64,000 nt of DNA from Rickettsiales bacterium (GTDB lineage: Bacteria; Pseudomonadota; Alphaproteobacteria; Rickettsiales; JAIXRX01), in contig CBDFGH010000003.1 of assembly GCA_965247145.1 (NCBI GenBank), forward strand, positions 33,085 through 97,084. Reading direction: 5' to 3'. Below, in pieces: positions 26,122-27,873 of the stretch (position 1 is the stretch's first letter; each line of letters begins with the position of its first letter). The translations under genes were made by a program, and so were the position numbers. The notes under the pieces were generated by a model. It was not told the DNA's origin. It saw only the letters and a program-made list of their open reading frames with translations, and searched no databases.

Positions 26122-27873
26122 ATGACATCCCCCCTGCTTTCGGTCGAACATCTGCGCATTTCCTTCCCCCAAAGGGGCGGAGAAGCGCGCGTGGCGGTGC
26201 AGGATCTGAGTTTCACCGTGGAACGCGGGGAGACGGTGGCGCTGGTCGGGGCCTCGGGCTCGGGCAAGACGGTGAGCGCGCTGGCCATTCCGGGGCTGCT
26301 GCCGCCCGCGCCTTTCTGCGCCATGCAGGGCAGTATCCGGCTGAATGGGCAGGAATTGGTGGGGCTGCGCGAACGGGCCATGGCCCCGTTGCGCGGTTCC
26401 AAGATCGGCATGGTGTTTCAGGAGCCAATGACGGCGCTGAACCCGCTGCACCCCATCGGGCGCCAGATCGCCGAGCCGTTGAAATTGCACACCACGCAAC
26501 GCGGGCCCGAACGCCGCGCGCGGGTAGCGGCGCTGCTCGAGCGGGTGGGCCTGACGCATCTCATCGCGCGGCTGGAGGCCTATCCCCACCAGCTTTCGGG
26601 CGGCGAGCGCCAGCGGGTGATGATCGCCATCGCCATCGCCTGCAACCCCGATCTGCTGATCGCCGACGAGCCGACCACGGCGCTGGATGTCACGATCCAG
26701 GCCCAGGTACTGGCATTGCTGCAATCCATCCAGGCCGAATTCGGCATGGGGCTGCTGTTCATCAGCCATGATCTGGGCGTGGTGAAACATCTGGCCGACC
26801 GGCTGGTGGTGCTGGATCAGGGCGTGGCGGTGGAACAAGGCAGCGCCGCCGGGATTTTCGCCGGGCCGAAACACGCCTATACTAGGCTGCTGATGGCCGC
26901 GCAGCTTCCTGAAGGCCCGCCTGCCCCCATCATCCCGGCGCAGGCCGGGACCCAGCCAAGCAACGAAACACCCAACCCGCACACTCCGCACGCGATGCGG
27001 AGTGCTGAGGGGACGGAGCGGCACTCCGCATCGCGTGCGGAGTGTGCGACGGTCGGGAATGGGCAGGCCGCGCTGAAGCTCGATCGTCTCGGCATCGCCT
27101 ATGCCCATCCGCGCCCCGGCATCCTCGGCTGGCTCAGGAAACCCGAGAGGAAACCGGCCATTGCGGATGTGTCGCTTTCTCTGCCGCAGGGGCAGACGCT
27201 CGGCATCGTCGGGGAATCGGGTTCGGGCAAGACCACTCTGGCGCTGGGGCTGTTGCGTCTGTTGCCGCCCGATGCGGGACTGCGCGGCGCGGTGTGGCTG
27301 GGCGATGCGCGCATCGACGCCCTGCCCCGCGCCGCGTTGCGGCCTTTGCGCGCGAAGATGCAGCTGGTGTTCCAAGACCCCTATGGCAGTTTGAATCCGC
27401 GCTTGAGCGTGGGCGAGATCGTCGCGGAAGGGCTGCGCGTGCACCAACCCACCCTGCCCCGCGCCGAGCTGGAGGCCAAGGTGGCCCAGGCGCTGGCGGA
27501 AGTGGACCTGCCCACGGATGCGGCGGCGCGCTACCCGCATGCCTTCTCCGGCGGCCAGCGCCAGCGCATCGCCATCGCCCGCGCTTTGGTGCTCGAACCC
27601 CGCCTGATCGTGCTCGACGAACCCACCAGCGCGCTGGATGTGCTGCTGCAGGCGCAGATCGTGGAACTGCTGCGCGGGCTGCAGACGCGCCTGAGCGTGA
27701 GTTACGTGGTCATCAGCCACGATATGCGCGTGGTGCGCGCGCTCTCGCACCAATTGCTGGTGCTGCGCCATGGGGCGGTGGTGGAACAGGGAGAAGCGGC
27801 TGACATCTTCGCGGCACCGAAAGCGGATTACACGCGAACGCTGATGAAAGCGGCCTACGCCTTGGCGGAATAA
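26122..27873 (+). CDS. yejF: ABC transporter ATP-binding protein YejF (duplicated ATPase)
   Basis: It has two ABC cassettes ([16 protein letters not shown] and [16 protein letters not shown]). The inter-domain linker is unusually long and contains a palindromic element. Confidence 0.85.
26978..27048. repeat. double-hairpin palindromic element (REP/RPE-like), copy 1, inside yejF
   Basis: The element reads CGCACACTCCGCA-CGCGA-TGCGGAGTG...CACTCCGCA-TCGCG-TGCGGAGTGTGCG. It has two 9-bp-stem hairpins, and the outer 13 nt are also mutually complementary. Confidence 0.8.

Follow-up and report, generated by a model that had tools for sequence, protein, structure and literature searches.

The window analysed here, a stretch of 64,000 nt from contig CBDFGH010000003.1 of the Rickettsiales bacterium assembly GCA_965247145.1 (positions 33,085 to 97,084 of the forward strand), harbours a yejF-like gene whose open reading frame (ORF) contains a palindromic element made of two inverted hairpins, and a second element of the same kind in the spacer between a DUF3576 gene and leuS (Table 1). 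Pfam analysis of the yejF product identified two ABC_tran domains and one oligo_HPY domain, and its best NCBIfam model was YejF (PRK15134), with a score of 619 bits, which is under the 834-bit cut-off of that model, and with the match broken into two stretches by the insert. Homologues of this protein bear the JGI label "microcin C transport system ATP-binding protein". When 11 and 51 homologues were aligned with it, no variation was seen at the Walker A, signature, Walker B and H-loop columns, and, judged from its sequence, the gene looks functional. The yejE-like gene upstream encodes a permease of the same transporter and is 80.6% identical at the DNA level to its orthologue in L001 (GCA_965189445.1), while neither yejA nor yejB adjoins the yejF-like gene. 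Between the stop codon of yejE (25012) and the start codon of yejF (26122) lies a 1.1-kb segment of lower G+C content (25013-26106), containing an antisense orphan ORF (347-357 aa) without matches in Pfam or NCBIfam.

Table 1. Features of the 64-kb window, with position, strand and supporting details; island stretch, putative integrated island.
Feature	Position	Strand	Details
yejE-like permease gene of the same transporter	23978-25012	plus	463 bits with the NCBIfam model for the microcin C ABC transporter permease (cut-off 439)
yejF-like gene, two ATP-binding cassette (ABC) ATPase domains	26122-27870	plus	583 aa from ATG at 26122; catalytic motifs intact
Linker residues 279-313, predicted disordered, including the REP-encoded peptide	26956-27060	plus	AlphaFold2
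REP dimer (REPIN-like palindrome)	26978-27048	plus	inverted arms, RNA fold, in-frame translation
REP unit 1	26982-27004	plus	9-bp stem CACTCCGCA/TGCGGAGTG, loop CGCGA
REP unit 2, unit 1 inverted	27022-27044	plus	loop TCGCG
leuS	37743-40598	minus	
Second REP dimer, same family	40614-40687	.	intergenic; DUF3576 gene stop at 40693, leuS start at 40598
Arm-DNA-binding integrase fragment	4462-4947		island stretch
ParE toxin gene	5411-5776		island stretch
tRNA gene	6296-6369		island stretch
Rfam sRNA-Xcc1 match	6635-6723		adjoins the IS3-family element
IS3-family element	6753-7984		island stretch
Type I restriction R subunit piece	9419-9733		island stretch
Phage-type integrase	20184-21275		island stretch
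tRNA gene	21581-21654		island stretch

The element inside yejF is 71 bp long and consists of two arms of 28 nt each (26978-27005 and 27021-27048), which are 100% complementary to each other and separated by a spacer of 15 nt. Each arm holds a perfect hairpin, CACTCCGCA-N5-TGCGGAGTG, with a stem of 9 bp and a loop of 5 nt, and since the two loops are mutual reverse complements, the second hairpin is the first one inverted. This pair of hairpins has the architecture of a repetitive extragenic palindromic (REP) dimer, or REPIN. The original prediction, made from the sequence before this analysis, had already described a 71-bp double hairpin within the yejF ORF; the structure proved more regular than described, and the complementarity noted for the outer 13 nt is present there but extends over all 28 nt of the arms. 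As RNA, the element folds into one long hairpin of -74.8 kcal/mol (z = -10.5), and none of 200 shuffled sequences was as stable. With up to three mismatches allowed, four matches to the hairpin pattern were counted in the window, corresponding to the two dimers, against 0.04 expected from shuffles; all four units consist of a 9-bp stem and a 5-nt loop, and every pairing of their arms scores higher than all 2000 shuffles. A search with a covariance model of these four arms detected no extra or degraded copies within the 64 kb and nothing convincing in L001 and L002, loci of the two relatives described below, and no RNA family of Rfam matched at either dimer. No target-site duplication was found around the dimers, the flanks being acccaacc/acggtcgg in yejF and cctttact/aagacctt in the intergenic copy, without a direct repeat, and neither dimer coincides with a promoter-like or intrinsic-terminator-like site. 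An additional outer stem, CCTGCCC/GGGCAGG, was dropped as a part of the yejF element because its left side codes for conserved PPAP residues.

The second dimer shares this architecture in a less perfect form, its 28-nt arms being 82% complementary and 18 nt apart. Compared with the yejF copy, the first arm shows a single difference in 28 positions, CACACTCCGCAC[G/C]CGATGCGGAGTGCTGA, and the second hairpin, CATTCCGCA..TGCGGAATG, is still perfect by virtue of one compensated base-pair change. The existence of a further copy of the same architecture had thus been correctly recognised in the original prediction, which placed it at 40616-40685 with an identical first arm; the limits are slightly wider (40614-40687), and the arm is not identical. 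On the transcribed (minus) strand the intergenic dimer folds with -45.4 kcal/mol (z = -5.7), the minimum-energy fold again being a long hairpin. Of the 94 nt that separate the DUF3576 stop from the leuS start, 74 belong to this dimer, which lies on the strand transcribed for both genes, these being co-directional; such a spacer is a typical location of REPs.

In the reading frame of yejF the element codes for residues 286-309, that is, for 24 residues, exactly as originally translated. Five of the six frames through the element are free of stop codons, and read-through is therefore the expected result of any insertion that keeps the frame. The structure predicted by AlphaFold2 from a 52-sequence alignment (mean predicted local distance difference test, pLDDT, 88.4; predicted template modelling score, pTM, 0.83) contains confident domains on either side of residues 279-313, which constitute the sole run of three or more residues with pLDDT below 50. 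This model supports the view that the linker tolerates the REP-encoded peptide as an additional, disordered segment. An internal restart yielding two half-proteins was also considered and ruled out, as no in-frame start is available (a GTG at 27042 is in another frame). Linker length was taken in 116 homologues as the number of residues from H.YT, the motif with which the first half of the protein ends, to the second Walker A motif. This distance amounts to 113 aa in the protein of the window versus 68-69 aa in 112 of the 116 homologues, and to 73-74 aa in P0004 and P0003, two of its three closest relatives. The extra residues that are not encoded by the palindrome comprise a stretch of 12 residues upstream of its peptide and TVGNGQ downstream.

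The collections searched contained two related genomes only, namely GCA_965189445.1 (L001 and L097), with 70% identity in YejF and 77-78% in LeuS, and an assembly from the European Nucleotide Archive (ENA; L002 and L098), with 62 and 75-77% identity, respectively; the nearest named homologues come from Rhodospirillales and "Rickettsiales bacterium" metagenome-assembled genomes. The linker of the L002 orthologue is encoded by plain DNA, and the palindrome is absent from it. The L001 protein shows exactly the same spacing of 113 aa as that of the window, made by different DNA that is palindromic as well: an in-frame composite palindrome of 145 bp (L001 8418-8562), whose outer arms contain CCCTCTCCC-AGA-GGGAGAGGG and whose inner arms contain GGGTGAGGG.../...CCCTCACCC, and which folds with -90.5 kcal/mol (z = -4.8). 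The window and L001 linkers have no alignable similarity in DNA or peptide, and their hairpins stand at different offsets. As evidence against an insertion, the original prediction had named relatives with a linker of the same length and peptide but without palindromic DNA; in the nearest relative the length is indeed the same, while the peptide differs and the linker has palindromic DNA of its own.

A similar situation was revealed in the DUF3576-leuS spacer. In L097 it contains an inverted REP dimer at 9890-9973, of the form CGTC-ATCCCCGC-GAAG-GCGGGGAG-CCA followed by the inverse TGTC-ATTCCCGC-GAAG-GCGGGAAT-CCA, and both this dimer and that of the window begin 6 nt past the DUF3576 stop codon, whereas the L098 spacer is 29 nt long and has no hairpin. 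The yejF linker and the DUF3576-leuS spacer are accordingly both occupied in the window and in GCA_965189445.1 and both empty in the ENA assembly, and the same holds for a loop of LeuS that is described further below. The REP arms of the window and of L097 are only marginally similar, the score of the best pair being equalled by 41 of 2000 shuffles and those of the other pairs not being significant; an identity of about 21 of 24 positions, estimated by eye, was not upheld by alignment and shuffling. A hairpin in the L001 linker, ccaatGCGAAGGCattgg, has the same loop as the L097 REP units, with a score matched by 20 of 2000 shuffles. The positional correspondence of the elements between the two sister genomes is strong, and homology between them is a possibility only. 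From these three genomes it would seem that permissive sites, here a coding linker and an operon spacer, are either hit repeatedly by such insertions or keep them.

The survey of Di Nocera et al. (2013; PMC3733652) assigned most prokaryotic REPs to two superfamilies. The GTAG-tagged REPs are associated with RAYT, and the CGTC-tagged REPs, with the tag variants TGTC and CCTC, are mostly alphaproteobacterial, occur mostly as dimers and have no known dedicated transposase; the latter have stems of 8-9 bp that start with AT (complementary A and T at stem positions 1-2), loops of 4-5 nt and a CCA tail, and they include RPE-4 and RPE-6 of R. conorii (PMC3733652). The units of the window resemble the CGTC-tagged REPs in stem and loop length (9 bp and 5 nt), in forming inverted dimers and in their alphaproteobacterial host. 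They differ in lacking a CGTC, TGTC or CCTC tag, the corresponding positions reading CCGC-A, TCGC-A, CTTC-A and TTTC-A, in stems that begin with CA, and in tails that read CTG or CCG; ATT directly after the first C of the stem was seen in one window arm only. Because the tag, the AT stem start and the CCA tail are missing, the element of the window was not filed as a CGTC REP, although its behaviour resembles that of one and it may be a degenerate derivative. The L097 dimer, in contrast, closely matches the type CGTC-1 in its CGTC/TGTC tag, 8-nt stem, GAAG loop, CCA tail and hallmark VIPAKAG peptide, with a stem of 8 bp in one arm and of 7 bp plus one mismatch in the other.

With the RAYT-mobilised REPINs and bacterial interspersed mosaic elements (BIMEs) of Pseudomonas and E. 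coli, the elements of the window share the inverted hairpin pair, the short spacer, the fold into one long hairpin, the occurrence as dispersed copies and, for one dimer, the position between co-directional genes; unlike in GTAG-type REPINs and BIMEs, neither GTAG nor CTAC adjoins any of the four units. REPs of this class, imperfect stem-loop palindromes of 20-40 nt, range from tens to hundreds per genome and are mostly extragenic, and the 64 kb of the window show two dimers, one genic and one intergenic. No RAYT gene (Y1 transposase, PF01797) was detected among the 30 ORFs of the window scanned with Pfam. As the CGTC REPs have no known dedicated transposase, the search for a RAYT that was originally proposed as a check may not apply, and none would be expected if the window family is of the CGTC type. 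[quoted passage not shown] The Rickettsia palindromic element RPE-1 (about 100-150 bp, found in frame in many genes) resembles the yejF element in that the palindrome is read through and gives a functional protein an additional segment where this is permitted, on the surface or in a linker; compared by architecture, the yejF element is half that size and consists of two REP hairpins.

The view that palindromes in coding sequences are rare outside Rickettsia, expressed in the original prediction, was overstated, since in-frame REP dimers coding for 20-30 aa have been catalogued in many bacterial species (PMC3733652). Additional file 3 of that study lists dozens of REPs within ORFs, with ABC transporters and tRNA synthetases among the hosts; in-frame examples include IleRS and GlyRS of E. 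litoralis and DNA polymerase I and DnaE2 of R. palustris, and recB of two Xanthomonas species carries different REPs at about one site (PMC3733652). The phenomenon is thus already documented in alphaproteobacteria, and the element of the window adds one example to it. What is new is that the closest available genome likewise carries palindromes in its YejF linker, of identical length and unrelated sequence, and in the corresponding intergenic spacer, both of which are empty in a third genome.

Genome contigs were scanned with the pattern CAYTCCGCA-N5-TGCGGARTG, which yielded at least 95 matches, scattered singly across phyla. Among the matches listed, 15 of 95 carry GT...AC flanks (the TGTC/GAC frame) around the core hairpin CATTCCGCA-N5-TGCGGAATG, against fewer than one expected, which indicates that TGTC-ATTCCGCA-N5-TGCGGAAT-GAC is a widespread tagged hairpin. 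This tagged form (among loci L003-L096), often with A/T-rich flanks, was observed in Nitrospirota, Patescibacteria, Coxiellaceae, Treponema, Thermodesulfobacteriota and Bacteroidota, and some genomes, for example Patescibacteria AH-259-L05, contain multiple copies of it. A scan of JGI metagenomes with the longer pattern CACACTCCGCA-N5-TGCGGAGTGC gave no matches, and nothing scored in a search of 5.8 billion proteins with seven concatenated open-frame peptides of both dimers.

Taken together, these data make it probable that the 71-bp element is a copy of a small dispersed family of REP-type palindromes, located in frame in the flexible inter-domain linker of YejF and read as extra residues; the core of the original prediction, which saw a REP/RPE-type double hairpin inserted without loss of frame into the linker that joins the ABC domains of a YejF-type protein, holds. 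Within the DNA for the linker between the two nucleotide-binding domains, the two inverted REP hairpins would form a dimer (REPIN) that presumably arrived by insertion. It would have stayed there because it is free of stop codons in the frame used, because its net length keeps the frame and because it falls in a disordered, unconstrained loop. YejF would thereby carry about 24 additional residues in its linker, and this peptide is likely neutral; according to the structural model it is probably a harmless disordered loop. The very stable mRNA or DNA hairpin may have side effects at most: for example, it could make translation pause between the domains, protect the mRNA upstream of it or form a cruciform.

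Several observations weigh against this interpretation. Only two dimers are visible, the span analysed being 64 kb. The palindrome covers 24 of the roughly 39-44 extra linker residues, so that the element accounts for a part of the longer linker and not for the whole of it, a correction to the original prediction. The nearest genome, at 70% YejF identity, has a palindromic linker of equal length, and there is no close allele with an empty site; as that linker is likewise expanded, the yejF insertion may be old and later overwritten rather than recent. Finally, a 1.1-kb insertion parts yejF from yejE, genes with a 4-nt overlap in either relative.

In a rival reading, a palindromic element would already have been present both in the YejF linker and in the DUF3576-leuS spacer of the ancestor shared with GCA_965189445.1, the sequences having been replaced or homogenised since, and concerted evolution within each genome would account for the arms of the window being still perfect. 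Such ancient shared occupancy would agree with the filling of both sites in both sister genomes and their emptiness in the ENA assembly, with the identical 113-aa spacing, with the intergenic dimers starting at the same distance from the DUF3576 stop codon and with the loop that the L001 linker hairpin shares with the L097 REP units. The yejF copy is, moreover, identical to one intergenic arm at 27 of 28 positions, and the other intergenic arm keeps the CATTCC state, as does L097. Against these points stand the lack of alignable similarity between the window and L001 linkers with their different hairpin offsets, the marginal similarity of the window and L097 arms, the possibility that the equal linker length is a coincidence, and the fact that three genomes only are compared. 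On balance we regard this scenario as tentative and somewhat unlikely, and its strictest form, in which the elements at both sites are orthologous ancient REP-dimer insertions, kept since before the divergence to 70-78% protein identity, one of them in frame in a coding linker whose length has stayed exactly the same, and overwritten by concerted evolution, as rather doubtful. If true, it would imply that REPIN-like replicators persist over the long term, and turn over, within coding sequence, and something would have to maintain the elements, be it selection on structure or a site-directed replacement mechanism. The alternative to shared ancient insertions is that the same permissive sites were hit independently in the two sister genomes.

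It is improbable that the palindrome in yejF is a selected regulatory RNA or DNA structure, acting as a translational pause or an mRNA-processing site that keeps synthesis or folding of the two ATPase halves apart, or as a site for a REP-binding protein. Its perfection and exceptional stability, the preservation of the hairpins of the second copy by a compensated change, the structured palindrome kept at the same place in the sister genome and the RNA-level roles ascribed to transcribed REPs in the literature (PMC3733652) would all fit such a function, but about 112 of the 116 homologues do without any insert, the second half of the protein has no in-frame internal start, the hairpin has no terminator-like tail, and a single compensated pair is weak evidence. 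Still less probable is an origin in place, by template switching or inverted duplication at replication, rather than by insertion of a mobile element. A clear case of this kind exists in the same window, where (CTTGCGA)x4 in leuS is repeated in inverted form, perfectly over 32 nt, in a variable loop 97 nt upstream. An in-place duplication would copy local sequence, however, and what speaks against it is that the REP units of the yejF arms are found again, in the same dimer arrangement, in the intergenic spacer at a distance of 13.6 kb. An artefact, for instance a chimeric inverted join produced in assembly or amplification, might be suspected as the contig has the look of a draft or of a metagenome assembly, but it is hardly credible in view of the second, non-identical copy of the same architecture in the window, the preserved reading frame, the sister-genome linker of the same length and the arms not being copied from adjacent sequence.

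As a probable copy of a dispersed REP-type family, the yejF element offers a clean example of how bacterial proteins may gain disordered linkers from selfish palindromic DNA, with a predicted structural context and in a poorly sampled lineage of alphaproteobacteria, and it bears on the question of whether REP/REPIN populations are long-lived residents or transient invaders. It is also relevant for annotation, since repeat-derived peptides depress family scores, as seen in the split and sub-threshold YejF match, and are not to be taken as functional domains.

The leuS gene of the window contains further repeats. At positions 39713-39874, a perfect 32-nt inverted repeat of heptamers, (AGTCGCA)x4.4 and (CTTGCGA)x4.3 separated by 97 nt, is in frame and surrounds the conserved TTRPDT segment, with a fold of -89.8 kcal/mol (z = -9). 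The (CTTGCGA)x4 arm is native coding sequence (10 residues), with imperfect periodicity in L097 and none in L098, and the other arm is its inverted copy, which adds about 8 aa to the variable loop ahead of the TTRPDT motif; the repeat looks like an inverted duplication made in place, followed by repeat homogenisation. At the same LeuS loop as this heptamer arm, the leuS gene of GCA_965189445.1 carries a G/C-rich palindromic insert encoding 57 aa in frame (L097 10746-10880; CCTCCCCCCTAGAGGGGGGGAGG ...), and nothing is inserted at that loop in the third genome. Another in-frame insertion in leuS of the window, of about 80 aa (~38500-38870), precedes the KMSKS motif and is absent from all eight aligned LeuS homologues; its G+C content is 39-50%, versus about 60-68% in the remaining gene.

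After the porin gene, orthologous strong hairpins, AGAGAAGGGTGGCGC.../AGAAGGGTGCCGC..., were found at 41384-41419 of the window and at L097 9204-9235; the differences in their stems are compensated, and they probably represent a conserved terminator. Finally, the region of ~4400-21700, with its two tRNA genes, integrase genes and other features listed in Table 1, looks like an integrated island.

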